IMG/VR virus record: IMGVR_UViG_3300031957_001682
Location: 32,001 to 96,000 of that record
DNA from: a virus
Reading direction: 5' to 3' (one strand)
DNA: 64,000 bases
In this document: positions 10,578 through 60,822 of the stretch, in pieces
Layout: each line of letters opens with the position of its first letter
Position numbering within the stretch: the stretch's first letter is position 1
Position numbers and translations under genes: made by a program
The notes under the pieces: model-generated
Databases searched by the model: none
The model's input: only the letters and a program-made list of their open reading frames with translations
What the model was told of the DNA's origin: nothing

Positions 10578-10608
10578 ATATTTCACTCTCCATTATTTTT
10601 TTTGTTTT

Positions 10609-12024: not shown

Positions 12025-12064
12025 TACCCTCCGATTCATTGTCATGGTATATAGAATGATACTA

Positions 12065-26391: not shown

Positions 26392-28593
26392 TCACCCCAT
26401 GTTTGTTTTTATGACTTTGATAATCTTAGCATCAACATTGTAGGACTTAGCGATGTTGTGCCAATCTCCCATTGTTTGATTGATTGTCACGACCTCACTT
26501 GCGGTTAGCCCGACATGTTTCGCCAGTGCGTGTGGATTGTTAAGATTACTGTTAATTTTAATCCCCTCGAATCCGGCTTCTTCTTGTTGCATTCGCTCTA
26601 ATGCTTTCATCACTCGGTCCATTACCGGTAGGTGTGCATCTTCGCTTCTTAGGTACTGGTCAAGTAATTGCTGTCTTGGGTCGGAAAGTGATTGTTGCGC
26701 CCTTCTTTCAATCGGTGTTAAAAATTCATCCGGTGCTGGACTTGCTCGACCTCCACCACCAGCAACCATCATTTCTCTAAATTGCTGTGGTGTTTGATTT
26801 GCAATCTGTGGTCTAACTTGCTGGAACCGTGGGTCAAGAGGCGTAGCCGGTGGGCCTTGTGGTCTTACCGCTACAGGAGGAAGAGGTGCCGCACCGGAGG
26901 GAGGTGGTGAAGAAACCGGAACCTGCGAAAGAGCGGAAGCAGGGGATTCCGGTGCGACTGTATCACCACTTGGGCGAATTGGCATGGCTGTACTTTCTGC
27001 AAAGTCTTCCATAGGGTGTAGGTATGCATCCATGTGAGGGTCGAGTGTGGCATCAACTCCTTCTTCGGGATAATCTAAAAATTGCATATTTTTTGCTGGT
27101 TCTGTTTTTATGTCACCAATGGGCATTTTTACTGGCAAACCCTGTGATTCTGCTTGGTGGTCGGCTAATGCTTCGATAATACCACGAAAACGCTCGACTT
27201 GACCCATAAGCCGCTCATCGTATCGTACACCAAATGCGTTTAACTGCTCACTGTCAATTGAATGATTACTCAAATTACTTCGCTCGGAGTCATCATCACT
27301 TAGACCGGACCTGTGAGCGAGTGCCATAAGACGGGCGGCAGTGGTGTCTTTTCCTTTGCTACCACCCCTACCGGGTTTGAAATGACGACTTTGTTCATCA
27401 TAGGACAAACCTTCTTCTCCTTCACCATAGATACCCATGAGGCTATTGAAATGCTTGTTAAAATCACCTTGACCCGGCCTACCAAACAAATACATCATTG
27501 CTGGTACATTTGCCATATCTTGAATTAAACTTCTTCGTAGTTCACTATCTTGAAGAATGACACGAAGTGGGCGTTGAATCATTTCGGGACTCGCTAAAGT
27601 GCCCACATTGATTGTAGCGGGTACATCGGGAATTGCATCTATGTTGCCCAAAGCGTTTGTAATGGCCCTTTCAGCCATTTGATATAATCCATTTTTGTGT
27701 TCCCAACTACCTTTTTTTCCGGCTTTTTGTCCACTTGCTTTTGTGTTAGGATAAAAGAAAATGTCCGGTAGGTGGTGAGTAGTTGATTCAGTGTGTACCG
27801 CAGTTTGTTCACTGAAATAATCATCGGGTGCCCTTGACATGTGTTGTGTGCTTATTTGATTCGGATGTTCTTGATATGAAGCATCAACTCGACCTTTAGG
27901 TGCTGTTTCACGAGCGTAAATGTAAGGTCTTTTTACAAAAGTTAAATCCGATGATACTTCAAATGGAACTCCATGTTCTCTTTCAAGAATTTGACCAAGT
28001 TCGTGATTAAAAGGAATAGAATATGATTCAATAAAACGACCCATTGGGGTATAGTTTTTGTCACCGGGGGTGAAATTTTTGTTAGTGTAAGTGGTAATCA
28101 AAGAACCATTTTTGGTTTTTGTTGGGCGTTCGGAGTGGCCTTCTGTGCTGTCACCCGGAGGTAGCATTCCAGCCCTAATTTTTCTCCACGCCATGTTGTC
28201 AAAAGGTGGTAATGCGTGCATTCCATTATTCTTATCATCATCACCTTTGTGACTTGTATGGTTTTGATTAAACAATTGAATTGCTTTGTTAATCAAATCG
28301 ACAGGATGTGCTTTGATACCATGTTTTTCTAAAAACCACCCTAAGCGTGTAGCCGCCGCATCAATACCGTGTTGATAACTTCCCATTGGTGTGTTGTAGT
28401 GTAGTTCACCGTGGTCACCCGGAGCAAACTCACCTTCAAGAATTTCTCCTTGAGCATGTGCAAAGGCGGGTACATCTTCTTCTGTAGGTGGTCGAAACGC
28501 TGTTGCCGGTGGGTTGCGAATCATTGCCGCACCCTGTGGGGTAAAATGCTTCATTCCCCATGCTTTAATCAATGGAAAACGAACAGGTATCAT
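26392..28593 (-). CDS. Large hypothetical protein (putative internal virion protein)
   Basis: 733 aa; N-terminal FPLIK-A; Pro-rich linker; C-terminal HTH-like segment. Confidence 0.6.
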   Translation of the reverse strand: MIPVRFPLIKAWGMKHFTPQGAAMIRNPPATAFRPPTEEDVPAFAHAQGEILEGEFAPGDHGELHYNTPMGSYQHGIDAAATRLGWFLEKHGIKAHPVDLINKAIQLFNQNHTSHKGDDDKNNGMHALPPFDNMAWRKIRAGMLPPGDSTEGHSERPTKTKNGSLITTYTNKNFTPGDKNYTPMGRFIESYSIPFNHELGQILEREHGVPFEVSSDLTFVKRPYIYARETAPKGRVDASYQEHPNQISTQHMSRAPDDYFSEQTAVHTESTTHHLPDIFFYPNTKASGQKAGKKGSWEHKNGLYQMAERAITNALGNIDAIPDVPATINVGTLASPEMIQRPLRVILQDSELRRSLIQDMANVPAMMYLFGRPGQGDFNKHFNSLMGIYGEGEEGLSYDEQSRHFKPGRGGSKGKDTTAARLMALAHRSGLSDDDSERSNLSNHSIDSEQLNAFGVRYDERLMGQVERFRGIIEALADHQAESQGLPVKMPIGDIKTEPAKNMQFLDYPEEGVDATLDPHMDAYLHPMEDFAESTAMPIRPSGDTVAPESPASALSQVPVSSPPPSGAAPLPPVAVRPQGPPATPLDPRFQQVRPQIANQTPQQFREMMVAGGGGRASPAPDEFLTPIERRAQQSLSDPRQQLLDQYLRSEDAHLPVMDRVMKALERMQQEEAGFEGIKINSNLNNPHALAKHVGLTASEVVTINQTMGDWHNIAKSYNVDAKIIKVIKTNMG

Positions 28594-30257
28594 CCCATGT
28601 GCCCCCGCTTTGAAGTAAGATAACCAGCGGGGTCAAGTCCTAAACGACTTGAATTGGTTTCAAGATTTTGAGTAGGACCGTCATTCTTCTCATCTTCATC
28701 TTCATTCTGTTGCACACCGGCTGGATGCGCTGGCACTGCCCCTTCTTCAAAAGCCGACGCTGTACCCGCTTTTTTCATATTGGCTTTTTTTCTTTGAAGT
28801 TCAATTAACTGCCTCATCAATTGAAGCATTTCAACACGATTAGCGTGACGATTACCTTTGAGTAAATCACTTTCAGTACGCTCTTCACTCATCATCATTG
28901 TTGACGATGGTGCTGGCATACTCGGAACGCTACTCATCGGTGGAGCCATCTGTGGCATTTGTGGCATGGCTGGCACACGAGGCATACGAGGCACACGAGG
29001 CATACGAGGGCGGCGCATTCTTCGGAGAGAAGGCTGTCGCATTTGTCCCGATTGACCCGGTAATAGACCAGTTAAACGCCCAGCACCAGTTGGTCCAGCA
29101 GTAAACGACCTTGCGCTGTGACGAGCGTGTGGAGAATATGTGTTGCGAACACCACCAAGAATTTTTTGTGATTCTTGCTGGCCCATGTATTGACGGTATT
29201 TTTGTGGGTCTTTACTCATGGGTTGCTTAGTCGCAATACCACGGTGACTCATTTCAACAGACAAGTGAGGCTTCATCAAACCTGTTTTCTTTCCACCCTT
29301 GATACCACGCATTCTTGCTTTAAATCGCTTCATGGTTGCACCAACACCACCGCTTTGCCCACCCGGTGGTTTCTTGAATTGTCCAGTTGAAGGGCGGAAC
29401 TCTCTTCGTTTTTCACGGCGACGACGAGCCTCTATTGTACCCATTGTGTCACGCTTAAGTAGTGTACTCCAAGCATCAGCCATTGGTTCACTCATGGTAA
29501 AACTTGTTTCATCATTAAACGGTACATCAGTAAAATCACGATATTTACCTTCTATATCATCAAACGGAGGTTGTGCATCATCAACTTGAAAATTATGTAA
29601 ATCATATAATTTCTCAAAAAAATCTTCACGAGATGTAGCACTTGCTAAGTGGTTTATGTCGGGTTGTTGGAAATCATCTGCAAGACCCTCATACAAATGG
29701 GGGTTATCTATCTGTTCTTGAATCCAATTATACCATTCGGGGTGAACATCATTACGATTTGGCATTTTGTAATCGTGTTTGTATTGATTTTCACCGGGAT
29801 GAACCGTAGGTTCTTCTTTCAACAATGTACTCCAAGCACCATCCATCGGCTCGCCTGTTCTTACGGCTGAATTACCCGTACCCATCGCTGAACCTGTACC
29901 TGTCTTTGCACCTGTGGCTAAATCGAGTAAATGTCCACGACTACCAGCCGGTCCACCTTGAAGCCCTATCTCACGCTCATCATCACGCTTGTTACCGTCA
30001 TCAAGACCGGGTTCTGTTTCCAATCCCGCCCCTTGACCTAACCCTTGAGATGGTTTAATTTTGATGTGTTTGATTTCTTTGGCCTTTTTCTTAGCCTCTT
30101 CTTCTTTGAGTTTTTTTGCTTCTGCCCGCTTTTCATTATCTTCGGGTGAAGTAGGGTTGTATTTACCCTCATCTTCATTAGCAGAAGAATACATGTGAGA
30201 TGATTCACTACGGGGTGCATACATGCGTGTGTCCGAACCTCGACCCATAACCATCAT
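28590..30257 (-). CDS. Modular low-complexity protein with two cargo tags
   Basis: GEPMDGAWSTLLK-E and SEPMADAWSTLLK-R flank an acidic ~110-aa insert; followed by an Arg/Lys-rich region and (R/M/P) repeats. Confidence 0.6.
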   Translation of the reverse strand: MMVMGRGSDTRMYAPRSESSHMYSSANEDEGKYNPTSPEDNEKRAEAKKLKEEEAKKKAKEIKHIKIKPSQGLGQGAGLETEPGLDDGNKRDDEREIGLQGGPAGSRGHLLDLATGAKTGTGSAMGTGNSAVRTGEPMDGAWSTLLKEEPTVHPGENQYKHDYKMPNRNDVHPEWYNWIQEQIDNPHLYEGLADDFQQPDINHLASATSREDFFEKLYDLHNFQVDDAQPPFDDIEGKYRDFTDVPFNDETSFTMSEPMADAWSTLLKRDTMGTIEARRRREKRREFRPSTGQFKKPPGGQSGGVGATMKRFKARMRGIKGGKKTGLMKPHLSVEMSHRGIATKQPMSKDPQKYRQYMGQQESQKILGGVRNTYSPHARHSARSFTAGPTGAGRLTGLLPGQSGQMRQPSLRRMRRPRMPRVPRMPRVPAMPQMPQMAPPMSSVPSMPAPSSTMMMSEERTESDLLKGNRHANRVEMLQLMRQLIELQRKKANMKKAGTASAFEEGAVPAHPAGVQQNEDEDEKNDGPTQNLETNSSRLGLDPAGYLTSKRGHMG

Positions 30258-34802: not shown

Positions 34803-34935
34803 TAATTGTCATCATTGTCATAATACCATTCAAAATAATGAGTAGTATTACTATATATTTAGTGTAGGGGGGTGAAAATGACAAACATTAGTCAATTTGT
34901 TGACTACGATGATGACAATTATGACAATTGACAAT
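34803..34935. repeat. Non-coding TGACA/TGTCA inverted-repeat element, copy A
   Basis: attgtcatcattgtcataat ... AT-rich core ... aatgacaa, gtcaatttgttgac, atgacaattatgacaattgacaat. Confidence 0.7.
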
Positions 34936-37670
34936 CAAAGTAAGGTTCCTTTGTCCTTGAAATGCCTCGCTCGGTTGGTATGAGGGTCTTCGGGAACAAT
35001 AGTGTGCTGGCTGGTGTGGCTCATGTCCGGTCCACCCTGTCCCATAATGTGTCGTTGTCGGCGTTCACGGTTAAGTTCCTCTCGATACTTCACACGCTCC
35101 GGGCTGGACTCGTACTTCTTGTCGTACTCCAACTTATGCCGCTTGGCTTCGGGGCTTACACGCTCTTTAAGTAATCGCATAGCAATCTCCATTGGTTCGC
35201 CTTGCTGTATCATTTGCGGTTGTTGAGATTGTAAATGATTCCAATACTCATAGGTATCGGGTCTATGTTGTAGCATTTCATTAACCCCCGTTTGATTTGA
35301 TTGGTCCGATTGATGTGCACCATATTCATGAGCATACACTCTTGCTTGATTAGCCAACGCAACTCTTTGTTTTTCAGCATCCATTTCGGCTTGGTTTGTA
35401 GGTTTGGTCTTTAATCTTTGTAAAAAAGAGGCTCCTTGCATATCTGTAGGATATTCGGGTTTTACTTGAGATTGTAATGGCCCATGTTGTTGTTCTGCCC
35501 ATTCATTTATTTCGGGGTTAATTAGACTGTGCGTATATTCATGCCCAAGAGTGTTTGCTAATCCTTGTATAGATTCATCACTGTCGTTTATACCACGCAC
35601 ATCAGCCCCAATAAAATCCCCATTTGATTGAAGTCGTGGTTGAGAGCCACCGGTTGTGTAATCACCTTTATTTTGAATTTCTTGCACAGTATTTTTATCC
35701 ACTCCACTCATTCGATTCATAGTTTGATTGCGAGGTATTGATAGCAATGCTTCATTGCTAATATCGGCAGGTGTATAAAATCCCTGCATACCTTCTTCGT
35801 CATCACCAATATAGAACTCTTTGAGCAAACGCATAGCAATATCCATTGGTTCGCCTTGCTGTATCATTTGCGGCTGTTGTACTTGCGGCTGTTGTACTTG
35901 CGGCTGTTGTACTTGCGGCTGTTGTACTTGCGGCTGTTGTAATGGTAATTGTTGTTGATTTGGGTCTGTTGGTTGTACAACTGGGTTAGGTTGCATGTAT
36001 TGAGCCATTCGTTGATTATAGTCATCCGTAATTTGTTCACGATTTTTCCCCCATCTCATTCTGTATGGCTCTTTAGGTCTAACTTCACCTCTTTGATTTG
36101 TTTGTTGAAGATTGGGTGTATCAATTTCTGTATTTTCTCTTTGTGCTATTTGCCCTCCTATTGATAAAGCGGGTTGTGACATGGCTGTATTTATCTCATT
36201 TTGGTTATTTGTTCTCGCATGTGCTGTGTTTTCTAATACTGAATTTGTAATGGGTGTATTGGTTAAAAATTGTCTTGGTATATTTCCACCGTAATGTGTT
36301 GCATCACTAAAATCAACTGTTTGTCCTTGCGCTGTTTTAAAATTATGACTTGGGCCTATGAAATTTGGATGGTTTTGGTCGAAAGCGGCTTGTCTTATTG
36401 CTAATAATTTAGGTTTGGAGTGTGTACCTCCACCATGATGACCCACACTTCTATCAATTGCATAACTAAGTGCTTCCGAAGGATTTGTACTCATGGTGCG
36501 GTAATTATCACTATGTGTTTTTAAACCATCTCCACCCATTATTTTTCTTGCATCATCACCCGTAGTTCCGTGATAAGCAACTACAGGGCCGTAAGGTGAA
36601 GGAAAGTCTTCATGATGCTCGCCTAAATTAGTTTGATATTTAAGCAACCGCATAGCGAGGTCCATTGGTTCGCTTCTATAGAATTGTGTTGGGTTTTTTA
36701 ATGCACCCGGAATTGCAGTTAATTGGTCATCGAGTAATTGCATTTGTTCGGGCGAAGTATGTGTTTCATCTAATTCTGCTACACGCCCCGATGGTCCCAT
36801 AGTTCGTTCCCATTGTTGAAAAGTACCATGTAATGGGTCCATACCCCCACCTATGTTTCCTGTTAAATCGTTGAGGTTTTCTGTTATAGAAGAAATTACT
36901 TTTCCATCCGGTCCTATTTTTGTTGGTACAATATCTTGGAATGATTTTATACCATAGGCTCTTGCTGTTTGTGGGTCAATTAAAGCACCCGGAATTTCAG
37001 CATCCATTATCATTTGGGCAAGTTCACGAGCACGATGACGCTGTGCTCCTTCCAGTCCTATTCTTGATGGAGGGGCATCTTTACTTCTTGGTAAAAACAT
37101 ACTTGCGGCTCTTTGAAGGTCATAAAGCATAAATGGGTTTTTGTTAAGTCGGCGTACACTGTCTTCTTCTAAATCACCATAAATGATTCCTTCGGGGTCT
37201 TGATTTTTACCGTATCTTTCCGGTGTACTTTCAAAACCATACAAATTTAAAGGCCATGCTCTTTTACTTTCGGGTACATCAACAAATTCGCTACCTTGTC
37301 TTGGTGTTAAACCCATTGCATGACTCGGAAAAACAAACCTTCCTCCAAGTGGCTCATCAGTCATTATGGTTTCAAGTGGTAGTTCTTCCCCTCGACCCAT
37401 TTCTAAATTATGGTCCCTAAAACTTGTATTTTCACGATTGGCAAGTTTTCTTGCTAAATGTAAATTTTTACTTGGGTGGTATTTACTGGTATTTTGTGCA
37501 GAAGTTAATCTAAGTGACCTATTTGGAGAGTATCTTTGGTGAAAACCAGCCATAAGTTCATCGAATTTTCGCTCATTATACTCACGAATAATTTCATCCC
37601 AACGCTCATTTTGGTTTTTAAGAAGGAGGAAAGCCTGTTCCATTGGCTCTAACTCTCTACGCATACGCAC
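34935..37670 (-). CDS. Four-module polyprotein (unknown / ART-like / zincin-like / HNH-like), each module preceded by a cargo tag
   Basis: EPMEQAFLLLK, EPMDLAMRLLK, EPMDIAMRLLK, EPMEIAMRLLK; modules carry YHGT..ST...A.SYA..GNIP, HEYTH...HEYGAH, and DMSH...EDPHTNRAR. Confidence 0.75.
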   Translation of the reverse strand: MRMRRELEPMEQAFLLLKNQNERWDEIIREYNERKFDELMAGFHQRYSPNRSLRLTSAQNTSKYHPSKNLHLARKLANRENTSFRDHNLEMGRGEELPLETIMTDEPLGGRFVFPSHAMGLTPRQGSEFVDVPESKRAWPLNLYGFESTPERYGKNQDPEGIIYGDLEEDSVRRLNKNPFMLYDLQRAASMFLPRSKDAPPSRIGLEGAQRHRARELAQMIMDAEIPGALIDPQTARAYGIKSFQDIVPTKIGPDGKVISSITENLNDLTGNIGGGMDPLHGTFQQWERTMGPSGRVAELDETHTSPEQMQLLDDQLTAIPGALKNPTQFYRSEPMDLAMRLLKYQTNLGEHHEDFPSPYGPVVAYHGTTGDDARKIMGGDGLKTHSDNYRTMSTNPSEALSYAIDRSVGHHGGGTHSKPKLLAIRQAAFDQNHPNFIGPSHNFKTAQGQTVDFSDATHYGGNIPRQFLTNTPITNSVLENTAHARTNNQNEINTAMSQPALSIGGQIAQRENTEIDTPNLQQTNQRGEVRPKEPYRMRWGKNREQITDDYNQRMAQYMQPNPVVQPTDPNQQQLPLQQPQVQQPQVQQPQVQQPQVQQPQMIQQGEPMDIAMRLLKEFYIGDDEEGMQGFYTPADISNEALLSIPRNQTMNRMSGVDKNTVQEIQNKGDYTTGGSQPRLQSNGDFIGADVRGINDSDESIQGLANTLGHEYTHSLINPEINEWAEQQHGPLQSQVKPEYPTDMQGASFLQRLKTKPTNQAEMDAEKQRVALANQARVYAHEYGAHQSDQSNQTGVNEMLQHRPDTYEYWNHLQSQQPQMIQQGEPMEIAMRLLKERVSPEAKRHKLEYDKKYESSPERVKYREELNRERRQRHIMGQGGPDMSHTSQHTIVPEDPHTNRARHFKDKGTLL
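35176..35879. repeat. 50-bp direct repeats (35176-35225 and 35830-35879) bracketing the zincin module
   Basis: cgcatagcaat(c/a)tccattggttcgccttgctgtatcatttgcgg(t/c)tgttg, 2 mismatches. Confidence 0.9.
35868..35940. repeat. 15-bp tandem repeat, about 5 copies (QQPQV linker)
   Basis: ttgcggctgttgtac repeated. Confidence 0.9.
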
Positions 37671-37723
37671 CAGTTGGTGGTAAAAAGCGATACCATTTAG
37701 AATGCTCGCCCGCTACGAGAGTC

Positions 37724-39241
37724 ATGGGCCGACATGTTGCTGTGCGTAAAGCACCTACTCCGGCTGATGCTGGGGGTGCAGTTGCAGGTCGAGCCGCCGG
37801 AGGCGGTATAGGTAGTGCCATAGGTGGTGTTTTAGGTTCTATTATCCCCGGTGCTGGCACTGCGGCTGGTGCTTCTGCTGGTGGTGCAGTTGGTGGTGCA
37901 GTTGGTGGTGCAGTTGGAAAAGTTGGTGCTAAGAAAATTGCTGTTGGAGCCGCTGAAATGGCACAAAATCAAGCCAATGCTCAAGCCGCTCAATCACAAC
38001 AAACCATGCAGAATAACATTCAAAGCGCAAAGGACACGGCTCAACAAGCCAAAGACCAAGCCGGTATCGAAAAGGCTTGGAAGTTTCCAGCAAGAATGAT
38101 GCACCCGGAATTTAAATCATATCGGGATAGCATTATTGAGCGGGCTAAAAAAGCACCTCGACAAGATGAAGATTTTCGTCAAAACCAGCATTGGAATGAA
38201 CGCATGGGTCATAAAGAAGGCAGACCCCAAGAGGCTCGCTACATTCCAAACCAACACTTTGAACATGAAGATGAAGTACACAACATTACTCCATTTCAAG
38301 TTGCTTATGCTACATTGCAACACATGAAAGAAAATAGGTTAATTGATGAAGACAATCACGATGCTGTAGCATTGCGGGAATTACTTCATACTGACCAACC
38401 ACACCCCGACCCTAATCAAATGGAAAGTGGTATGGCTCACATATTTTCTCCTGTAATGGATATTAGGACTATGAGGGGTAAATCAGCACACGCTCAACCA
38501 TTTATTGACCCAAAGGGTGCAAAAACACAGCATATTTACGCACAAGATGTAGTAAAACCCGATAATCTTTCATATTCATCACAAGAAAAAATTGCTGTGC
38601 GACCAAAATCAATTGTAAATGAATATATGCCCGGTAAAAGAGCAAAACCAAGTGAAGAAGAACTTATTGACAGTTTTATTGACACTCCGGCAAGTAAATT
38701 ACAAAGAAATTTTGGTATTGAAGACAATAGACTTGCAGGGCAAGAATATATTGCTCAAAGAAAATATGAAAAAGAACAAGCCAAACAACAAGCGGCTCAA
38801 CAGGCTCAACAAGAAGCACAGGCTAAAGAAGAACAATTTCAACAACAACCAATAACAGTAAATGATATGGGCGGTGTGTACTTTGTCACAGACCCCGCTT
38901 ACGGTTATAATGGTGAAATGATGGATTATCAACAATTAGTTCAAGGTGGGTATGACAAATATCTTAACAATGATAACAAAAGTGAACCAATGGACTTAGC
39001 GTGGCAAATGTTGTTTAAAGCGGGTGTTGAAGTTCACCACGATGAACCACTGCCGCAAGAGTTTACTCAAGACATTACTACACTTGACCGTCAACACAAA
39101 ATGGTTCCAACAGAAAACGGCACTATGATTGACAATATCAGCCCACACATGCTCCGTACCATTGAACTAATGGCGCAAAATCACAAAGATGATGATACTT
39201 TCACACCTAAACCATTTAAAATGCCTACAACTTTTCATTGA
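37724..39241 (+). CDS. Modular protein with N-terminal glycine zipper and internal cargo tag
   Basis: VAVRK-A; GGGIGSAIGGVLGSIIPGAGTAAGASAGGAVGGAVGG; SEPMDLAWQMLFK-A at 38984-39019. Confidence 0.65.
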   Translation: MGRHVAVRKAPTPADAGGAVAGRAAGGGIGSAIGGVLGSIIPGAGTAAGASAGGAVGGAVGGAVGKVGAKKIAVGAAEMAQNQANAQAAQSQQTMQNNIQSAKDTAQQAKDQAGIEKAWKFPARMMHPEFKSYRDSIIERAKKAPRQDEDFRQNQHWNERMGHKEGRPQEARYIPNQHFEHEDEVHNITPFQVAYATLQHMKENRLIDEDNHDAVALRELLHTDQPHPDPNQMESGMAHIFSPVMDIRTMRGKSAHAQPFIDPKGAKTQHIYAQDVVKPDNLSYSSQEKIAVRPKSIVNEYMPGKRAKPSEEELIDSFIDTPASKLQRNFGIEDNRLAGQEYIAQRKYEKEQAKQQAAQQAQQEAQAKEEQFQQQPITVNDMGGVYFVTDPAYGYNGEMMDYQQLVQGGYDKYLNNDNKSEPMDLAWQMLFKAGVEVHHDEPLPQEFTQDITTLDRQHKMVPTENGTMIDNISPHMLRTIELMAQNHKDDDTFTPKPFKMPTTFH

Positions 39242-39307: not shown

Positions 39308-40153
39308 TCATTGCAATAACGGTACTTTATGTTCCTTTTCGTTTAATGCAATTTGTTGTGCGATAGTTGATGCAACTTTAAGTGTGTCAATGCACACACC
39401 GGTTTCAAAACCCCATACATTAAGATGCAATACCAGTGTTTCGGTTGACAAGTTTGCTCCACTATTGTCAACAAACGGACAACCGCCGAGTCCACCGATG
39501 CTTGAGTCAAACTCACGAACACCAGCCATAAGACCCGCACGAATTAGTTGCAATGCTTTTTCTTCGTCACCTTTGTGATGTAAATGCAATGCGGGAGTCA
39601 TACCTTCGAGTATAGCCATCTCGGACCACAAATGTACCTCTTCTCTTGTTCCTACCCCCACTGTATCAGCAAACACTACAGTATTGCCAAACATTTTTGC
39701 ATCTTTAATGCACGATTGCATGGTTAATGGGGAAACTTGACCACTGAATGGACTACCAAACGCCATGCTGATGTACACACGCACATTTTCCTTTGGTGTT
39801 TTATCCAAGAATGTTTTGTACATCAACACAAGTTCACTTCGGGTTTTTCGCATGTTTTTCATGTTGAAGGTTTCACACGGGCTAATGACTATGTTGATTT
39901 TTTTAGCACCAACAGCAATGGCTCGGTCAAAACCACGCTTGTTCATGACAAGCGCACCGCCACGCTGATACACTTTTTCAGCATCAGCCATTTGCGGCAC
40001 AAGTTTTGGGTGTGCAAAACTAACTTCTTCAATTTCTGTCAAGCCAGCGTCGTATAATGCATCAATAAGTTCGGTTTTTTTAGAAGTGGGTATTGGAAAT
40101 TTAAGTGATTGCAAACCGTCACGAGGGCCAACCTCGTACACGGTCACTTTCAT
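39308..40153 (-). CDS. hmgL: Hydroxymethylglutaryl-CoA lyase (auxiliary metabolic gene)
   Basis: EVGPRDGLQ, SFAHPKLVPQMADA, ADTVGVG, HLH, GGLGGCPF...GANLSTE (DRE-TIM metallolyase with catalytic Cys). Confidence 0.9.
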   Translation of the reverse strand: MKVTVYEVGPRDGLQSLKFPIPTSKKTELIDALYDAGLTEIEEVSFAHPKLVPQMADAEKVYQRGGALVMNKRGFDRAIAVGAKKINIVISPCETFNMKNMRKTRSELVLMYKTFLDKTPKENVRVYISMAFGSPFSGQVSPLTMQSCIKDAKMFGNTVVFADTVGVGTREEVHLWSEMAILEGMTPALHLHHKGDEEKALQLIRAGLMAGVREFDSSIGGLGGCPFVDNSGANLSTETLVLHLNVWGFETGVCIDTLKVASTIAQQIALNEKEHKVPLLQ

Positions 40154-45183: not shown

Positions 45184-47523
45184 ATGAATACCATGACCAA
45201 CCAAACACCAAACCCCAAAGCCCAACCCGTCAGCCAAAAGTATGACGGCATGAACAAATTCAAGAAGATGAAAAGTGTTGATGCTCTCTATGCACCCTAC
45301 TGGGACGACCTTGCCGCCGTCAAGATTGATTTGATTGCCGACCCCGAAGAGCGCAGACAGGCTTGCCACACTGCTTACAATTCTTTGTCGGACCATGATG
45401 TGTTCGTGCGTGCTTGCCCTCTTGCACCACGCCCCGGCGTGCTTGAGTCCTCAAGAGCATTGGACATAAGCGAAGTCATCACCATCGTTGACCGCATCAC
45501 TATGACGATGCTTGGACCGGACCCCGACCCTACCAATCCTATGTACGAGCATGGTTTGTGTGACCCCTATGGTTGCATCATGCTCATGCCTTACCTCGAT
45601 GCTACTGCTTCCTGTGTGGTAGCACCCTACTCCTATGTCACTGTTGGTGAAGGCAACGCTGGTGTGACCTCACCTCATGGTGGCTTCCAAATTGTCATGG
45701 ACTTGAGCCAAAGCGCAGAACAATACTCACGGGAGGCACTTGAGAATATGGGAATTGACCCAGCCAAGATTGAACTTGAGTTCGTTCACCGTGTTCACGA
45801 TGGTGACTTGAATGCAAAGGTACGCTCAAGCACAAAGAAGTCAAACCATTGGGGCAACACACGCATCGTGCAACTGCGTGGTGCAGAAGATGGACACAAG
45901 CCTATCCGTTCTCCACCTCACCCGTTTGAAATCAGTGGCTTCGTACAAGGTGGTACAATCACAGTCAAAGAAGTGCTTACACTTGTGGATGGTAGTGATG
46001 AAGAACTCGCTCGACTCGAAGAATATTTGCGTGGCCGTGACCTTGATGGTGTCGTCGTTGCACACCCCGATGGTAGTCCACTCTCCCACCATGCAGGGCA
46101 GTGTACTAAGTGGGGAGTCACTTACATCAACAGTGACAAGCCAAAGGTCGGTGACACATGGGTTGAGGTTGACGGATGGGTTATTGATGACCCCACCATC
46201 GAGCCTCAACCATTCAACCAGTACCATTGGCGTGAGTCCTTTGACCGAGGGCTTGCTGTTGGTATGACCAAGTTCTCTCGACAGTACGGTTGGTTGTCTA
46301 ACCACTTCCATCAGTTCCTCGGTGGCGCAGTGATGAGAAGTCCACAAGACACAGCCTACCTTGCTGGTGTCTTTGCTGGCTACCTTCCCAATGCTATCCT
46401 CTCCGTGTCCTTCGGTGAGTTGCGCTACATGAATCGAATCAAGTCCAACACACTCCCTATCAACAACATCACATTCATGGCCTTGTCCGATGGCATCGGT
46501 ATTGAGGAAGTGTACACACAGACTCGTCGTTCATACTACCGGAAGATGGAAGACAAACCACTCACCATCCACTCCCTACTTGGGCAACTACAGTGGTGCG
46601 CCGAGATGTACAGCACAGGCTGGGAAGGCAGTGGCTACGGTGGCAAGAACACCTATGGCAATGCTACCAACAAGGGTGTTGCTATCGTTGAGGGCATCAT
46701 CAAGTACGGTGCTGACCCCAGTGAAGATAACTTCCGAGCCTTGCTTGGCCTTGTCAATGAGGGTGAGAACATCGTACACAACAATGGTTTCTTCTTGGAT
46801 AAGTACATCAGCAAGCGTGCCTTTGACATTGGTACAAACCCCAAAGAACTTTCAGCATTCTATCCCGATGACTTCTTTGCTGTGTACGGTGCGGCATCAC
46901 ACGCTTACCAATACATCAACGGCTTCAAGTCCGTTGACAAGACTGACACCACCCTCATCACGAACTTTGCTCTTAACAGCAAGGGTGCTAACAATGTCCA
47001 CAAGCAAATGGAACAACCCATCATGGCTGTGGATGATTCCCCGTTCACTACATTCAATACACCAAAGTATGTTCAATACATTCACGGCCACAACAGCAAA
47101 TACAGTGGTGACAACCCCGACAAGTTCGTCCCATGTGGTTCCCTTCACTGTGGAAAGTGCAAGCAGGTTGCACTCGACAAGATTAGCGCAGATGCACAAG
47201 CGATGATTCAACTACCACTACCAAGCAACCAACCGCAGTACGACATGAACTTGCCACTCGATATTGAAGTGTCCTATGTCCTTCCCGAATACATCGAGGG
47301 ACACAGTGGCTTACTACTCACCATCTTCAAGGGTCACTCTTACATTGAGCAGGTCATTCCCAACATCATGTCCTTCCTCAATGAAGCACACGAGCATGAC
47401 CTACAAGACAATGCCTCCAAGATAGCACAGCAATTGGTGAAGCACTATGCTTCATACATATACAACGCTCCACTTGACTTCAAGGTGAAGTTGATGCAAG
47501 CATACACAGGTGAAGAAGAATGA
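45184..47523 (+). CDS. PEP-utilising enzyme-like dikinase (ATP-grasp plus swivelling phospho-His domain plus novel C-terminal domain)
   Basis: VFVRAC..RPGVLES, LMPYLDA, IELEFV, IVQLRG (PPDK/PEP synthase ATP-grasp motifs); VVAHPDGSPLSHHAGQCTKWGV (GGxTSHxAxxAR-like His motif). Confidence 0.65.
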   Translation: MNTMTNQTPNPKAQPVSQKYDGMNKFKKMKSVDALYAPYWDDLAAVKIDLIADPEERRQACHTAYNSLSDHDVFVRACPLAPRPGVLESSRALDISEVITIVDRITMTMLGPDPDPTNPMYEHGLCDPYGCIMLMPYLDATASCVVAPYSYVTVGEGNAGVTSPHGGFQIVMDLSQSAEQYSREALENMGIDPAKIELEFVHRVHDGDLNAKVRSSTKKSNHWGNTRIVQLRGAEDGHKPIRSPPHPFEISGFVQGGTITVKEVLTLVDGSDEELARLEEYLRGRDLDGVVVAHPDGSPLSHHAGQCTKWGVTYINSDKPKVGDTWVEVDGWVIDDPTIEPQPFNQYHWRESFDRGLAVGMTKFSRQYGWLSNHFHQFLGGAVMRSPQDTAYLAGVFAGYLPNAILSVSFGELRYMNRIKSNTLPINNITFMALSDGIGIEEVYTQTRRSYYRKMEDKPLTIHSLLGQLQWCAEMYSTGWEGSGYGGKNTYGNATNKGVAIVEGIIKYGADPSEDNFRALLGLVNEGENIVHNNGFFLDKYISKRAFDIGTNPKELSAFYPDDFFAVYGAASHAYQYINGFKSVDKTDTTLITNFALNSKGANNVHKQMEQPIMAVDDSPFTTFNTPKYVQYIHGHNSKYSGDNPDKFVPCGSLHCGKCKQVALDKISADAQAMIQLPLPSNQPQYDMNLPLDIEVSYVLPEYIEGHSGLLLTIFKGHSYIEQVIPNIMSFLNEAHEHDLQDNASKIAQQLVKHYASYIYNAPLDFKVKLMQAYTGEEE

Positions 47524-48815
47524 GTAGCAAGAAGACACGAAGACAACAACGCAAGAAAAACAAACACACTAATAACAAGGAGATGAACAAGATGACCAAG
47601 AAGATTAAACACACTAAGAAAACAACGCCAGCACTACCGAGCAAGACCAACTGCCACACCGGACAGACATTGATATTCAAAACAGTCGAGGGTATCGAGG
47701 TGTACGCTGGTGGCAAGAACCGACAGGGTGGTTGGCACAAGATGAACCCACTACCTCAATTGGCAATGGGTCCAAGTGAAACGCTTGGTGGTTGGGGCGT
47801 GGGTAGCAAGACCGAAGTACCGGAGGGTTGGTCATGCGAGCAACACCTTGAGGTCGTCACTCCACCACTCATGCTCTCTCTTGACTGGCCGGATTTCAGC
47901 ATCCCAAATGTGAGTAAGTATTTTTGGTACGCTGTCATTGATGACATTCGTGAGCATGGTATCACGAGAATCAGTACGCAGTGTGCTGGTGGTCATGGTC
48001 GCACTGGTGTACAGTTGGCTATCCTCGCATACCTACTTGGCACAGAAGATGAGCGAGCCGCTTGGCCCGACGCTGGTGTGCTGACTGAATGGGTGCGTGA
48101 GCAACACTGTGTTCATGCTGTCGAGGCTAAGTCACAACAGCAGTACATCGCAGATGTATGTGACATTCCACTTGGCGAGAACAAGGTTCACGAATCCACC
48201 TACACCTTCGGAGGCTACACCACCGGAGGCTGGTCGGGAAAAGCAAAGGTGGCTGGGGCCACCGATGGGTATGATGAACCACTGTTTAATTCACCTAACT
48301 ACGGGCGCATCATTGACCAGTACGGTGCAGACTACTGCCCTCACTGTGGGGATGAGCCTCAGTCAATGATTGAGTACGGCGACTTGTGTGGTGCGTGTGG
48401 TAAAGACCCACAAGAGAGTACCTCAACTGACACCACCTCGCTCAAGGAAGAGAGGGTTGAGATTGAACACTGCCCTGCTTGTGACTTCGATGTTATCATT
48501 GACGATGAGTGTACCCACTGTGGGTATGACTTGAAGATTGGGGCATCTAAAGCAGGTGAGGAATGCTTTGACTGCAATAGGAAATCAATGGACCATGATA
48601 CTTTCAGTGGTATTCGATGTGTACCATGTCACACTATTGAACACGCCATCTCCATGAAGACATTGAAGTTGGAAGCCAAGAAGGGTACTTTCAATGTGAA
48701 GTGTTTGGAGTGTAAGAAGTTCGTGCCTTCCAATCTCATTGCTGATACCAAGATAGGTGAAGGCTATGTTTGTTTCAAGTGTAGTGCCGAGCCAAAGAAG
48801 GAGGTGAAGGCATGA
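47520..48815 (+). CDS. Cys-dependent protein-tyrosine phosphatase with four C-terminal Zn ribbons
   Basis: WPD loop (LDWPDFSIP), CX5R (QCAGGHGRTG), Q-loop (VEAKSQ); eight CxxC motifs. Confidence 0.85.
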   Translation: MSSKKTRRQQRKKNKHTNNKEMNKMTKKIKHTKKTTPALPSKTNCHTGQTLIFKTVEGIEVYAGGKNRQGGWHKMNPLPQLAMGPSETLGGWGVGSKTEVPEGWSCEQHLEVVTPPLMLSLDWPDFSIPNVSKYFWYAVIDDIREHGITRISTQCAGGHGRTGVQLAILAYLLGTEDERAAWPDAGVLTEWVREQHCVHAVEAKSQQQYIADVCDIPLGENKVHESTYTFGGYTTGGWSGKAKVAGATDGYDEPLFNSPNYGRIIDQYGADYCPHCGDEPQSMIEYGDLCGACGKDPQESTSTDTTSLKEERVEIEHCPACDFDVIIDDECTHCGYDLKIGASKAGEECFDCNRKSMDHDTFSGIRCVPCHTIEHAISMKTLKLEAKKGTFNVKCLECKKFVPSNLIADTKIGEGYVCFKCSAEPKKEVKA

Positions 48816-49144
48816 ACAGAACATACGAAGACATGAGCAAGGAAGAACTGGTGACACTGGTGACACGATTGGCAAAGCAACACGATGAGTGGAGTGGAAA
48901 AGCATTCAAGTTGTGGGCTGTGATAGATAACAATGCACCAAGTCTTCTGTACATAGCAAATGAAATCTTTAACCCATACCCCAATGAGCCATCAACTTAT
49001 GAACGGGACTTCAAGCATGACGAGAGTGACGAAGCAAAGGAGTTGCGTGAGCAAGTTGAATACTTCAAAGGTTTAGTTGACCACTACAAAGATGAACTAC
49101 TGAAAGCAAAGGATGAATGGCAACCAAAGGAGACGATTGAATGA
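48812..49144 (+). CDS. Hypothetical coiled-coil protein
   Basis: GGAGGTGA RBS, ATGA coupling. Confidence 0.65.
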   Translation: MNRTYEDMSKEELVTLVTRLAKQHDEWSGKAFKLWAVIDNNAPSLLYIANEIFNPYPNEPSTYERDFKHDESDEAKELREQVEYFKGLVDHYKDELLKAKDEWQPKETIE

Positions 49145-51714
49145 ACACCGTCGCAGTACACCGAATGATTCGAGTCTTCACTGGCTACGGCTCACCCGAC
49201 TTGGGTAAGGATGGCGTGGGTCCAAACAAATCCGATTGGTCTTTCTTCTCCGGCGTGGCACATCAAGATGGGATGCAAGACCATCAGTTGCTTGAGGCGG
49301 CTGAACGATTCCACAAGTATCGCAACACACAACTACCATCCATCCTCACTGACGCTGGACTGATTGAACAGAAGGAGCAAGTAAGTTCCTTCTTACTTGA
49401 CATGAAGAAGGAGGGCGAGCGAGGTAAGCGTGAGTATGAAAGGATGCAACAGCAACGAGCCGACAAGTGGGAGCGTGAATCAAATGGTGACCGTGTACTT
49501 AGCAAGTCAATGCTCTCTCGCAAGAATGTATTCGATGACATGGTTGTCGAGGCTATCATGTACGCTCGTGAATGTGATGAGGCTACTGCCAAGCACTACA
49601 TCAAATCATACATGGAGTCATGGCAACCACCATCATCAGTGCGTGTGTCTGTACAGCAAGTCGATGATGTGTGGCGCAACAAGTGGGGCAAGGAGATTAA
49701 GTCTTCACGCATCGCTTTGTCATACACATACAACCCTGCTTTCAATGCGGCCCTCAAGGGTGCGCTGTCATTCCCTCAAGTCAAGTTCGATGGGCGCACT
49801 AAGATGTGGAGCATCATGGATGATGAAGCGGTACTCAACAAAGCAGTGAAGGCGTTGGAAGATGCCGGTGCTTTCTTTGACGACACCCTCACTCAACTAC
49901 GGGGCGACCATACTTTCACTGCTAAACCACAGGGCAAGAAGGTCACTGCTACCACTGCTACCTTGCGTGGTTCATCGGTGGTCTTGCAGTGGCCCTACAT
50001 CAGTGAGCCTCACATTCGTACTGCTGTCATGGGTGCAGTGAAGCAGACACAAGGCCGCAAGTGGAACCCCGACAAGAAGACATGGAGCGTGGCTCTTAGT
50101 GAGGCGGCTCCCCTTATCGACAGGCTTCGTAAGTTAGAACTTACTCAAGCAACTGCGCTGGCACAAGCCATCGAAGTTATCCCCGAAGTTCACACAGTCA
50201 TGGAAGAACGAGCCAACCGTATTGCTATCAGCAGTGCGGCTCGGCTTGATGATACCATGCTCGTGAGTGAGATGCGTAATGCACTGGCTGAACACTTCCC
50301 TGCTGGTCGTGAACTGTACCCCTTCCAATATGTCGGTGTGCAGTTCGCACAACTGGCTGGTGGTCGTTGCCTCATCGGTGACGACATGGGTATTGGCAAG
50401 ACTATCCAAGCCCTTGCTTACATCGCACTGAACCAAGACAAACTACCTGCGCTGGTAGTATGCCCTGCCAATGTCAAGTACAACTGGGCGAAGGAGGTCA
50501 AGGCTTGGCTACCTAACTTGAGTGTGAATGTTATCGAGGGTCGTAGCAAAGGAACCATCGAACCTGCTGACATACACATTTGCAACTACGACATTATGAA
50601 AGGGCGACTCCCTCAACTGTTGACACATGGTATCAACATCGTAGTGTGTGATGAGTCACACTACCTCAAGAATGCTAAGACGCAACGCACTGCGGCTACC
50701 CTTGAGATTGCAGAAGAGAGTGAGTCGGTTCTGTGCTTGAGTGGTACAGCCATCACCAACAGACCGATTGAGTTCTTCACTACACTCAACCTGCTTCGAC
50801 CCAATGAGTTCAGTTCATCCTATCAGTTCGGACAGTCGTACTGTGATGCTCACCACAATGGATGGGCATGGGACTACTCCGGCTCAAGCAACTCCGCCGA
50901 GTTGCACGAGCGCACTCGTGACTTCTGTATTCGCAGACTCAAGAGTGAGGTGCTGACTGAACTACCCGACAAGCAACGCACACTCCACACAGTCAAGCCA
51001 TCCAAGCAACAACTGTCACACTACAACGGTGTGCATCAAGCGTGGCTTGATGAGTGGGCTGGCTACCGTGAAGCATACAATGTACCAGCAGGGTTCGTAC
51101 TGAATATGCTGACCGACCTGCGCCACGAGTGCGGGAAGATGAAGGCGGCATCAGCAGTGGACTACATCATGGAGTACCGAAACATCACAGGCAAACAAAT
51201 CGTTGTCTTCGCACATCACAAGGATGTACTCAAGGCAGTGTACGATGGACTCCAATCACTCAAGGAAGACATACCAAAGACAGCCGCCATCACCGGAGAA
51301 GTAGCCGCCGATATGCGACAGATGCGAGTCGAAGCATTCCAAGCAGGGCACATAGATGTATTGCTGTGCAGTACAGTGGCGGCGAAGGAAGGACTCACTC
51401 TCACTGCGGCAGACACAGTGCTGTTCGTTGAAAGAGAATGGGTTCCAGCATGGGAGGAACAAGCCGAGGACCGTGTGTACCGCATCGGTCAAGACAGTGA
51501 CTCCGTACAGGCAGTGTACCTTACAGTAGCAGGTACGATTGATGAGAAGTTCAACGCTGTCATTGAAGCCAAGCGAGCAGTGGTCAAGGCTGTGCTTGAT
51601 GGTGGAGATGTGGATGAGCGCATGGGTATAGCCAGCGCACTCATCGAAGCGATGATGGATGCAGGTGACCTACCTGCTGACTTCAACAAGAAGCAAAACA
51701 AAACAAGGAACTGA
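49141..51714 (+). CDS. SWI2/SNF2 ATPase with HARP-like domains (SMARCAL1-like annealing helicase)
   Basis: DDMGIGKT, VVCPA, DESH, LSGTAITN, EGLTLTAA, QAEDRVYRIGQ; two HARP-like segments (KFDGRTKMWS, RKWNPDKKTWS). Confidence 0.9.
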   Translation: MNTVAVHRMIRVFTGYGSPDLGKDGVGPNKSDWSFFSGVAHQDGMQDHQLLEAAERFHKYRNTQLPSILTDAGLIEQKEQVSSFLLDMKKEGERGKREYERMQQQRADKWERESNGDRVLSKSMLSRKNVFDDMVVEAIMYARECDEATAKHYIKSYMESWQPPSSVRVSVQQVDDVWRNKWGKEIKSSRIALSYTYNPAFNAALKGALSFPQVKFDGRTKMWSIMDDEAVLNKAVKALEDAGAFFDDTLTQLRGDHTFTAKPQGKKVTATTATLRGSSVVLQWPYISEPHIRTAVMGAVKQTQGRKWNPDKKTWSVALSEAAPLIDRLRKLELTQATALAQAIEVIPEVHTVMEERANRIAISSAARLDDTMLVSEMRNALAEHFPAGRELYPFQYVGVQFAQLAGGRCLIGDDMGIGKTIQALAYIALNQDKLPALVVCPANVKYNWAKEVKAWLPNLSVNVIEGRSKGTIEPADIHICNYDIMKGRLPQLLTHGINIVVCDESHYLKNAKTQRTAATLEIAEESESVLCLSGTAITNRPIEFFTTLNLLRPNEFSSSYQFGQSYCDAHHNGWAWDYSGSSNSAELHERTRDFCIRRLKSEVLTELPDKQRTLHTVKPSKQQLSHYNGVHQAWLDEWAGYREAYNVPAGFVLNMLTDLRHECGKMKAASAVDYIMEYRNITGKQIVVFAHHKDVLKAVYDGLQSLKEDIPKTAAITGEVAADMRQMRVEAFQAGHIDVLLCSTVAAKEGLTLTAADTVLFVEREWVPAWEEQAEDRVYRIGQDSDSVQAVYLTVAGTIDEKFNAVIEAKRAVVKAVLDGGDVDERMGIASALIEAMMDAGDLPADFNKKQNKTRN

Positions 51715-59745: not shown

Positions 59746-60822
59746 ATGAAAGAAAACAAAATGGAGATGAATAATATGGCACACAATATAGCACAAACGA
59801 AAGACGCAGAATGGATGACAGCATGGAGCGGTAGTACACCGTGGCATGGCTTAGGAACACAAACAGAAGGACTGATGACAAGTTATGAGGCGTTAGAAAA
59901 AGCGCATCTAAATTGGCAAGTCGAAAAGATACCACTGATGTACATTGATGGTACGAACGGCTTGGAAGTTGTACCGGAAACCTACGGTGTATTCCGCAAC
60001 GATGGAGAGAAACTTGTACCACTGACACGCAACGGCAAAGCAGTGGGCAAGGTATGGAAGGCGTGGCAGAATGCTGATGCCTTCTCCTACATTGACGACC
60101 TCTTCCAAACACAGGAAGGTAAGATTGAGGTTTGCGGTGCGCTTGGTAATGGTGAGAAGGTATGGGTCTTGGCCCGTATGCCAAACAACATCGTGCTTGG
60201 CGGAGTTGACACAATCAATCAGTTCCTCCTTATCACGAACACTCACGATGGCACAGGTTCACTTGTCATCATGCTCACACCTATCCGTGTGGTATGCCAA
60301 AACACATTGAACATGGCACTCCAACAGGGTAGCGATTTCATTTGGCGAGTACGACACACCGGCAAGAAGGGCGAACACTTGGAGGCTATTCAAAAGGTAT
60401 TCAACCAAGCCAACGAAGCCTTCTTTGCATGGGGTGAGCAAGCGGTTGAACTGCTTGACATTGAGATGACATTGGATGAGGCGAAGGAATACTTCATTGA
60501 TACACTACAACTCAAACGCAACGAAGAAACCGGCGACCTCGCCGCTCGTGGAAAGGGTATGCTCAACAAGTGCGTGGCCCTGCTTGCTGGCGACAACAAC
60601 AAGGTCGGCAACATGGAGGGTACAGCATGGGCCGCTTACAATGCACTGACTGAATACATTGACCACCACGCTACTGAACTACGCAACGGTGACAAGAGCA
60701 TCAAGCGTATGGAGAGCGCACTGTTCGGGCTACTGGCACGACGCAAGCAAGCGGCATGGACCAACGCATTCGAGGACTACTCCGAGGCGGCGGCACTACA
60801 AGCAGTGGTGGTTGAAGAATGA
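59746..60822 (+). CDS. DUF932/DUF945-family (phage/plasmid LGT-associated) protein
   Basis: MAHNI...TPWHGLG, LNWQVEK, GALGNGEKVW, TNTHDGTGS, TPIRVVCQNTL, RHT, GTAWAAYNALTEYIDH. Confidence 0.85.
   Translation: MKENKMEMNNMAHNIAQTKDAEWMTAWSGSTPWHGLGTQTEGLMTSYEALEKAHLNWQVEKIPLMYIDGTNGLEVVPETYGVFRNDGEKLVPLTRNGKAVGKVWKAWQNADAFSYIDDLFQTQEGKIEVCGALGNGEKVWVLARMPNNIVLGGVDTINQFLLITNTHDGTGSLVIMLTPIRVVCQNTLNMALQQGSDFIWRVRHTGKKGEHLEAIQKVFNQANEAFFAWGEQAVELLDIEMTLDEAKEYFIDTLQLKRNEETGDLAARGKGMLNKCVALLAGDNNKVGNMEGTAWAAYNALTEYIDHHATELRNGDKSIKRMESALFGLLARRKQAAWTNAFEDYSEAAALQAVVVEE

Follow-up and report, generated by a model that had tools for sequence, protein, structure and literature searches.

Tag-joined protein cassettes at a hypervariable late locus of a magrovirus-like tailed virus: possible capsid cargo

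Encapsulin cargo-loading peptides are short conserved peptides, usually C-terminal, that send unrelated cargo into an HK97-fold shell, with cargo sets that differ by operon. In bacteriophage T4, gp21 cleaves after Glu. The T4 capsid targeting sequence (CTS) is a peptide of about ten residues that is carried by otherwise unrelated late proteins (IPI-III and Alt) and removed by gp21; one of these cargoes, Alt, is an enzyme of the ADP-ribosyltransferase (ART) type, which is loaded into the head and injected along with the DNA (PMC5512222), and the cargo exits with the DNA (PMC5512222, PMC10052503, PMC9026906). Polyvalent proteins of phages and conjugative elements (Iyer, Burroughs, Anand, de Souza, Aravind 2017; PMC5512222) combine unrelated domains in one polypeptide, are encoded beside packaging genes and show ART and zincin-like peptidase themes; processing by a peptidase has been proposed for them, and solo versions of their domains exist. 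Here we report the computational analysis of a 911-amino-acid (aa) open reading frame (ORF) from a virus genome (IMG/VR record IMGVR_UViG_3300031957_001682; complete, 107,632 bp, with direct terminal repeats), in which a recurring peptide joins four modules. The stretch analysed, called the window throughout, comprises 64,000 nucleotides (nt), bases 32001-96000 of the record.

Four copies of the peptide (G/S)EPM(D/E)xA(M/F)xLLK, hereafter the tag, divide the ORF into modules M1 to M4 (Table 1). A first-pass annotation made from the letters alone had proposed this layout for the ORF at 34935-37670, which lies on the minus strand. The frame is indeed open throughout from GTG 37670 (in a public gene call the start is the ATG two codons further on), the tags carry Met codons at 37643, 36665, 35846 and 35192 as claimed, and all of the quoted motifs are present (AYHGTT, MSTNPSEALSYA, GNIP, HEYTH, HEYGAH, DMSH and HTNRAR). 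The internal Met codons were rejected as separate starts, since this Met belongs to the motif and is not an initiator.

Two known systems come nearest, by analogy: the T4 CTS, with Alt and the internal proteins as its cargo, and the polyvalent proteins. As in T4, the same short peptide stands on unrelated late proteins; as in polyvalent proteins, at least two unrelated domains share one polypeptide, are encoded with virion and packaging genes, and have solo versions elsewhere. The tag differs from the T4 CTS in that it has no sequence similarity to it, occurs also between modules and at C-terminal ends, and has a leader and a junction form; moreover, the host is archaeal, the protease is of the S78 (HK97) type and not of the T4 type, and both loading and cleavage are putative. 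Unlike polyvalent proteins, the ORF has no MuF or portal fusion, belongs to an archaeal virus and bears a conserved tag on every module, a feature undescribed for polyvalent proteins. Encapsulin peptides have another motif and are part of neither a polyprotein nor a DNA-filled capsid. No family of the polyvalent census (MuF, ART-PolyVal, MPTase and others) was detected with Pfam, NCBIfam or PADLOC in the protein or its relatives, including about 10,700 residues searched with Pfam (the 911-aa protein and ten relatives), remote homology being possible. No paper in the collection searched mentions the tag.

The ORF has many relatives, which share its parts in different combinations. An exhaustive HMMER search with the ORF returned 441 cluster representatives, most of which match only the last 85-90 residues (M4), and a profile of M4 alone found 943 proteins of 45-401 aa, many of them from TARA and other marine samples. 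Among close relatives, some modules are 74-99% identical and the rest differ: M1 is followed by another cassette, M3 and M4 in P0003, and by two other cassettes and M4 in P0004, and P0007 has three other cassettes ahead of M2 and M4. The simplest form, M1-tag-M4 with 343 aa (P0192, P0204), occurs on contigs as long as 107 kb, more than 50 of them in all. The full set of M1, M2, M3 and M4 was found in none of 325 relatives. When 173 relatives, with up to eight tags in one protein, were cut at their tags, 426 segments in 120 families (86 singletons) were obtained; M4 closed the protein in 125 of 128 cases, and M1 opened it in 16 of 20. Judged from these arrangements, M1 and M4 form the base protein, and M2 and M3 are inserted cassettes, which in other genomes stand as genes of their own led by the tag.

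Genomic position gives the same picture. A pattern scan with the M4 alignment identified 204 IMG/VR contigs, from which 80 loci were taken (a search for related loci with the whole protein had found one locus only). In almost all of the 80 loci, a gene with M4 at its end directly precedes, on its upstream side, one conserved operon (45-92% identity), which consists of homologues of the window ORFs 34225, 33955, 33246, 32104, 31488, 30254, 28590 and 26392, and it also lies downstream of a homologue of the HMGL-like gene at 39308-40153. The gene at this conserved position encodes 81 to 1226 aa with 0-4 tags. In loci L012-L014 the flanks are about 91% identical to the window, and the genes have in common only M4 (99%) and an M1 of 33% identity. 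Because the neighbours are constant and the length and content of the gene vary, the locus is fixed and its content hypervariable, and the 911-aa ORF is, on this comparison, a late gene of that locus. The locus varies between genomes that are otherwise nearly identical, as is expected of a conflict locus. In loci with a short M4 gene, the upstream interval is occupied by separate small genes, most of them led by a tag, and the 911-aa protein is therefore made of tag-led genes that have been fused in frame, with M1 and M4 on either side. The proposed four independent tag-led modules are thus confirmed; the segment families, the 80 loci and the 325 relatives show that modules are gained, lost and reordered.

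A strict pattern of the tag, EPM(D/E)xA(F/M)(L/R)LLK, had no copy beyond the four in the ORF when all six frames of the window were scanned; with a looser pattern, some ten additional copies were found in other ORFs of the 107.6-kb genome, most of them late. The consensus of 317 distinct internal copies is (K/F/I/V)-x-(A/T/K/R)-(S/G)-E-P-M-(D/E)-(I/L)-A-(M/F/W)-(R/Q)-L-L-K, of which the junction tag of the ORF covers 12 residues, (G/S)-E-P-M-(D/E)-(I/L)-A-(M/F/W)-(R/Q)-L-L-K. A comparison of 100 distinct tag DNAs gave mean pairwise differences of 0.22, 0.07 and 0.52 at codon positions 1, 2 and 3, and all synonymous codons were used. Since the tag DNA is free at synonymous sites, selection acts on the peptide; these codon data show a tag under selection at the protein level. 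Tags 3 and 4 are predicted to be helical (model of M3 and M4), and the tag surface has one polar stripe and is otherwise hydrophobic.

Two classes of tag can be distinguished by position. Of the 403 tags found in 312 ORFs of the 80 loci, 166 lie close to the N-terminus and 220 are internal; the remaining 17 stand at the extreme C-terminal end. The N-terminal tags (n = 163) have the form M-x-(P/A)-F-x-x-A-W-x-x-L-K, with Trp at the aromatic position in 93% and no Glu among the commonest upstream residues; in stand-alone homologues the tag follows 2-6 residues after the start. The internal tags (n = 201) have the form (G/S)-E-P-M-..., with W, F or M at the aromatic position and, upstream, G/S in 82%, Glu in 71% and Pro in 86%. 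N-terminal tags that have at least four residues ahead of them still lack the (G/S)-Glu, and 15 of the C-terminal-end tags resemble the internal class. The (G/S)-Glu is confined to the internal and C-terminal-end class and is therefore specific to joints; it looks like a processing site, as far as such a site can be read from sequence. Tag 1 is of the junction type despite its position near the N-terminus, and the same tag is internal in the relative P0006, where it stands behind a Cys-rich cassette.

The joints also carry repeated DNA. The end of the linker and the tag form 63-nt repeats at 35163-35225 and 35817-35879 that are 92% identical, so that M3 is bracketed by direct repeats. The same junction links M2 directly with M4 in P0007, and in P0003 the right-hand junction that follows M3 is again the same. 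Recombination between the 63-nt repeats would add or remove M3 in frame. The DNA of tag 2 is only 63% identical to that of tag 4, and the repeats are therefore a local by-product of the shared peptide and not the cause of its conservation. The Gln/Pro linkers noted earlier were confirmed; a 15-nt tandem repeat of five units encodes (QQPQV)n at 35858-35947.

Table 1. Location of the ORF, its tags and its modules in the window.
Feature	Residues (aa)	Window coordinates	Strand	Remarks
Whole ORF	1-911	34935..37670	-	Stop codon 34935-34937; 911 aa from GTG 37670, or 909 aa from ATG 37664
Tag 1, EPMEQAFLLLK	8-18	37617..37649	-	Junction type
M1	19-332	36675..37616	-	Conserved N-terminal module; family F3, 20 members, 16 first
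Tag 2 with junction, SEPMDLAMRLLK	333-344	36639..36674	-	
M2 core	345-480	36231..36638	-	Invariant YHGT, STNPSE..Y, RQAAFDQNH, GGN-P-QFLT
M2 tail	481-605	35856..36230	-	Gln/Pro-rich; holds the (QQPQV)n 15-nt tandem repeat
Tag 3 with junction, GEPMDIAMRLLK	606-617	35820..35855	-	Within 63-nt repeat 35817-35879
M3	618-823	35202..35819	-	HExxH cassette; HEYTH 35529-35543; YAHEYGAH 35313-35336
Tag 4 with junction, GEPMEIAMRLLK	824-835	35166..35201	-	Within 63-nt repeat 35163-35225
M4	836-911	34938..35165	-	Constant basic C-terminal module; DMSH 35016-35027; HTNRARHF 34959-34982

Junction-type tags are present in further proteins. A 532-aa ORF on the opposite strand (37643-39241, plus strand), of which residues 41-142 resemble tail-associated lysin or tape-measure segments (PHROG E values of 1e-9 to 5e-5), has such a tag, SEPMDLAWQMLFK, near residue 448, ahead of a C-terminal module of about 75 aa. 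A 555-aa protein (28590-30257, minus strand) carries two, GEPMDGAWSTLLK and SEPMADAWSTLLK, 363 nt apart; its homologues are split or matched piecewise in relatives, which suggests cassette variation there too. Seventeen ORFs of the related loci (L023:6097-6921, L025:6192, L032:4069, L045:2765 and others) end 2-8 residues past a junction-type tag, and the next gene often overlaps their stop. These C-terminal-end tags may mark sites at which earlier polyproteins were split, or they may be true C-terminal tags.

Database searches with the ORF and its parts identified few known families. A megablast search of the ORF against 50,697 phage records gave no match, Pfam gave no family for the whole ORF at E values up to 1 or for ten large relatives (about 9,800 residues), and scans of the protein and its relatives with NCBIfam and PADLOC were likewise negative. 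Sequence and profile searches of the PDB with the whole protein, M4 and M2 gave no match or a spurious Gln-rich one. M1, which had been described as unrecognised, indeed matches no known family in any library searched, and a search of the Atlas gave no usable match; its family has 25-38% identity and several strongly kept motifs.

M2 had been proposed to be an ART of the Tpt1/PARP-like kind. Relatives usually encode it in a gene of its own, of about 250 aa, in which 2-3 residues precede the tag and the Gln/Pro tail is the same. Invariant in 25 sequences are YHGT, G-L, Y55, T-N-P-S-E, Y68, R-Q-A-A-F-D-Q-N-H and G-G-N-x-P-x-Q-F-L-T; H32 and Y55 are thus those of the H-Y-(E/D/Q) ART class, an assignment at motif level only, and H32 aligns with the His of the Tpt1 HGT motif. 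Pfam matched residues 26-64 of M2 to profile positions 99-137 of Tpt1/KptA (PF01885) below threshold (E value 0.063, 13.8 bits against a gathering cut-off of 26), in 3 of the 25 family members only. With a Tpt1 profile built from E. coli kptA and eight plasmid-borne homologues, hhalign gave a probability of 10-20% and pairwise E values of 0.001-0.003 over 44 columns; as Tpt1 had been selected for being the best Pfam match, the realistic figure is the database-wide E value of 0.063. The score of 27.6 obtained with hhalign exceeded those of all 120 column shuffles (mean 13.1, standard deviation 2.8, maximum 24.1) and of the reversed profile (12.7), and in permissive mode M2 was colinear with the C-lobe up to the last part of Tpt1 (YHGT, GL, Y-x-h-S/T...A, P-h-h-L-x-I and (I/V)-P-x-x-(F/Y)-L). 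Feature matches in the Atlas (0.88-0.89, below the trust level) included clusters with PARP (16% of members) and Tox-ART-HYD1 (71%); a profile search of the PDB gave no match for M2. The Arg-His-Arg-Arg tetrad of Tpt1 is not present in M2: the alignment starts at Tpt1 position 82, so that the Arg-His-Arg of the N-terminal lobe has no counterpart, and the C-lobe Arg (R125 in E. coli) aligns with Asp/Asn. M2 was rejected as a true Tpt1 enzyme on these grounds; at most it would share the NAD-binding ART-type lobe of Tpt1/KptA. The motifs of the proposed ART and a weak, above-null similarity to the Tpt1 C-lobe therefore stand and the Tpt1 catalytic residues do not, and we consider an ART-type fold of M2 probable, with moderate confidence.

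M3 is, from its motifs, an HExxH metallopeptidase-like domain, as had been claimed. The HExxH is kept in all nine members of the M3 family and in the divergent P0060 and P0103; among these M3 relatives are members of only 38-41% identity. A second motif, (Y/F)(A/G)HE(Y/F)GAHQSD, follows about 70 residues after it. Both lie on long predicted helices with a predicted local distance difference test score (pLDDT) of 68-90, the HExxH within helix 90-121 (pLDDT 68-85). The third zinc ligand may be a Glu that lies six residues past the second His, or may come from the (P)AHE motif that is conserved on the second helix. At least four other HExxH cassette families occur in relatives, several with a related (P)AHE-like second motif; Pfam gave no peptidase family for M3.

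M4, by its distribution, is the constant anchor of the locus and not an exchangeable toxin. It matches phrog_6437 (unknown function; E value 8e-16) and small, untagged stand-alone proteins of cyanophages (S-CBS2, S-CBP2, S-CRES1-3, P-SSP6 and others), so that a core piece of the archaeal-virus locus is common to bacterial viruses of the same habitat. Its invariant residues are D56, S58, H59, T60, E68, H71, N73, R74, A75, R76, H77 and F78. The model predicts two helices (pLDDT 73-84), then a hairpin (strands DMSH and TIVP) whose first strand ends at His59, and a helix, HTNRARHF, that carries N73 and H77 (pLDDT of hairpin and helix 54-63). This is a predicted beta-beta-alpha-metal layout with a His-Asn spacing of 14, shorter than usual. 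Of the earlier HNH-like assignment, the invariant Asp, His, Glu, Asn and His on a weakly predicted hairpin and helix stand, and confirmation by sequence search in Pfam or the PDB was not obtained; we regard a predicted His-Me finger as evenly balanced against other folds. The model of M3 and M4 shows no continuous confident fold across tag 4, as the modular reading needs.

Two side observations concern these modules. DUF5872 (PF19197), a small basic Cys-containing domain, is often fused ahead of M2, M3 or M4 without a canonical tag (P0010, P0011, P0156, P0177 and many others); the domain ends instead in a short hydrophobic-Lys stretch, TIVK. The M4 family is a small gene in cyanophage sipho- and podoviruses, for example at L001:2968-3282 (Synechococcus phage S-CBS2 gp045) and in the matches H1-H13.

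We tentatively favour, at somewhat less than even confidence, the reading that the conserved base protein M1-M4, with M2 and M3 inserted at tags, is loaded into the capsid and cut there. The helical tag would serve as an address by which the protein docks within the procapsid during assembly; the (G/S)-Glu ahead of internal tags would be cut by the S78 prohead protease or by the zincin cassette, freeing the modules; and the freed modules would leave with the DNA and act early on the host, in take-over or counter-defence, like T4 Alt and the internal proteins. Capsid docking, cutting at the joints and delivery with the DNA are inferred here. Other prohead proteases cleave after Glu, as after AXE in SPN3US (PMC10052503). 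Because the DNA of tag plus linker is nearly identical, homologous recombination between close relatives would allow a cassette to enter or leave in frame. A more general version, which we hold more tentatively, is a plug-and-play cargo system of marine archaeal tailed viruses in which one helical address peptide loads any bearer into the HK97-type capsid, the (G/S)-Glu is a joint cut by a protease, and cassettes are strung between a constant M1 head and a constant M4 tail and swapped among viruses by recombination at the joints.

Several points weigh against capsid-loaded, cut cargo. Cleavage ahead of Pro, which would be at P1', is unusual for many proteases. Tags at C-terminal ends and in the lysin-like protein of the opposite strand do not fit a simple N-terminal leader. 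The uniformity of the junction tags could be owed in part to shared descent and recombination. AlphaFold2 gave no usable fold for M2 with 25 homologues (pLDDT 34), the model of M3 and M4 is only partly confident, and fold searches with it gave no specific match, M4 being barely sampled. The presence of the gene product in virions, its cutting and the activity of any module are all putative.

The main alternative is that the tag docks to another hub, such as a viral or host chaperonin, a membrane or egress machine encoded by the neighbouring operon or a replication factory, and that the protein works in the infected cell, as a string of several enzymes or a tethered set, and is neither packaged nor cut. 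Like linear motifs in general, the tag occurs at N-terminal, internal and C-terminal sites, the single polar stripe on its hydrophobic surface suits docking, and chaperonins are encoded by some magroviruses (PMC5434244). We nevertheless consider this unlikely, since nearly all tagged ORFs are on the late, structural strand and the junction-specific (G/S)-Glu is left without a role. A non-enzymatic internal or scaffold-like virion protein, in which the basic helices of M4 bind packaged DNA and the seemingly catalytic motifs of the three modules M2 to M4 hold a metal or ligand without an effector role or are inactive, would explain why M4 is very basic, is universally kept at the locus, recurs in cyanophages as a small gene and is often found in fusions with the basic DUF5872; it would also accommodate the missing Tpt1 catalytic residues of M2 and enzyme assignments that no fold match backs. 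It is made quite improbable by the invariance of His, Asp, Glu and Asn in M2, M3 and M4 across divergent members, by the recurrence of at least five separate HExxH cassette families in relatives and by the hypervariability of the cassettes, which is typical of conflict genes and not of scaffolds.

The first-pass annotation had compared the ORF to polymorphic toxins. Exchangeable modules with a conserved junction peptide do recall the MuF or Rhs/CdiA kind, in which a constant carrier bears exchangeable C-terminal toxins with cognate immunity genes. The layout is, however, the reverse: M4, the most constant part, is C-terminal, M1 is the conserved N-terminal module and the variable cassettes are internal, between the two. 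The downstream genes form a conserved operon and are not variable immunity genes, and neither MuF nor a known toxin family was found in the protein or its relatives with Pfam, NCBIfam or PADLOC, which leaves a polymorphic toxin very improbable. The accompanying claim that there is no carrier except the tag did not hold either, since with the constant M4 and the conserved M1 a carrier exists. That the tag is only a recombination site in the DNA, encoding a functionless peptide, is hardly credible and was rejected: 92%-identical repeats bracket M3, but 100 DNA versions encode one peptide, differing by 52% at third and 7% at second positions, and the codon test contradicts a DNA-only site, as does the divergence of tag 2 from tag 4.

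Several genes place the virus. The major capsid protein (9477-10586) shares 35-37% identity with its counterparts in the haloarchaeal tailed viruses HVTV-1 and HCTV-1/5, and its remaining relatives in the phage collection are from viruses of methanogens. The genes for the large terminase, portal, S78 prohead protease and capsid lie downstream of the 911-aa ORF on the same strand, and an SNF2 helicase is encoded on the other arm of the genome. Magroviruses of Marine Group II archaea have been described (PMC5434244), and the gene layout fits these, which suggests a magrovirus-like marine archaeal tailed virus as the source.

Some neighbouring genes deserve mention. The S78 domain occupies residues 54-205 only of a 504-aa protein (10609-12123, minus strand), whose C-terminal extension of 300 residues could be a fused scaffold and is a candidate partner of the tag. 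The HMGL-like enzyme gene (39308-40153, minus strand; PF00682, E value 3e-19), a metabolic-type gene in the late region, borders the variable locus and is kept in most related viral loci with 39-71% identity. The other arm (47520-48815, 49141-51714 and 59746-60822, plus strand) encodes a weak tyrosine-phosphatase-like match below the cut-off (E value 9e-4), the SNF2 helicase, which includes a HARP-like segment, and a protein with DUF932 (E value 1e-46).

This study adds the positional orthology of the locus and its M1...M4 base form, the two tag classes, the codon test and tests of three domain assignments. Among the hosts of magrovirus-type viruses are archaea that rank with the most abundant in the surface ocean, and to our knowledge nothing is known of how they take over their hosts. 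The locus offers more than 100 cassette families without a Pfam match, organised by one recognisable tag, and the presence of the M4 family in cyanophages suggests that bacterial and archaeal viruses have part of this biology in common. Should the tag be both an address and a cutting label, it would mark the whole set of virion-delivered proteins of these uncultured viruses, so that early effectors could be read straight from sequence. It would then be the first known capsid-targeting signal of an archaeal virus and a natural modular cargo-loading tag, a short peptide for loading foreign proteins into an HK97-type shell.

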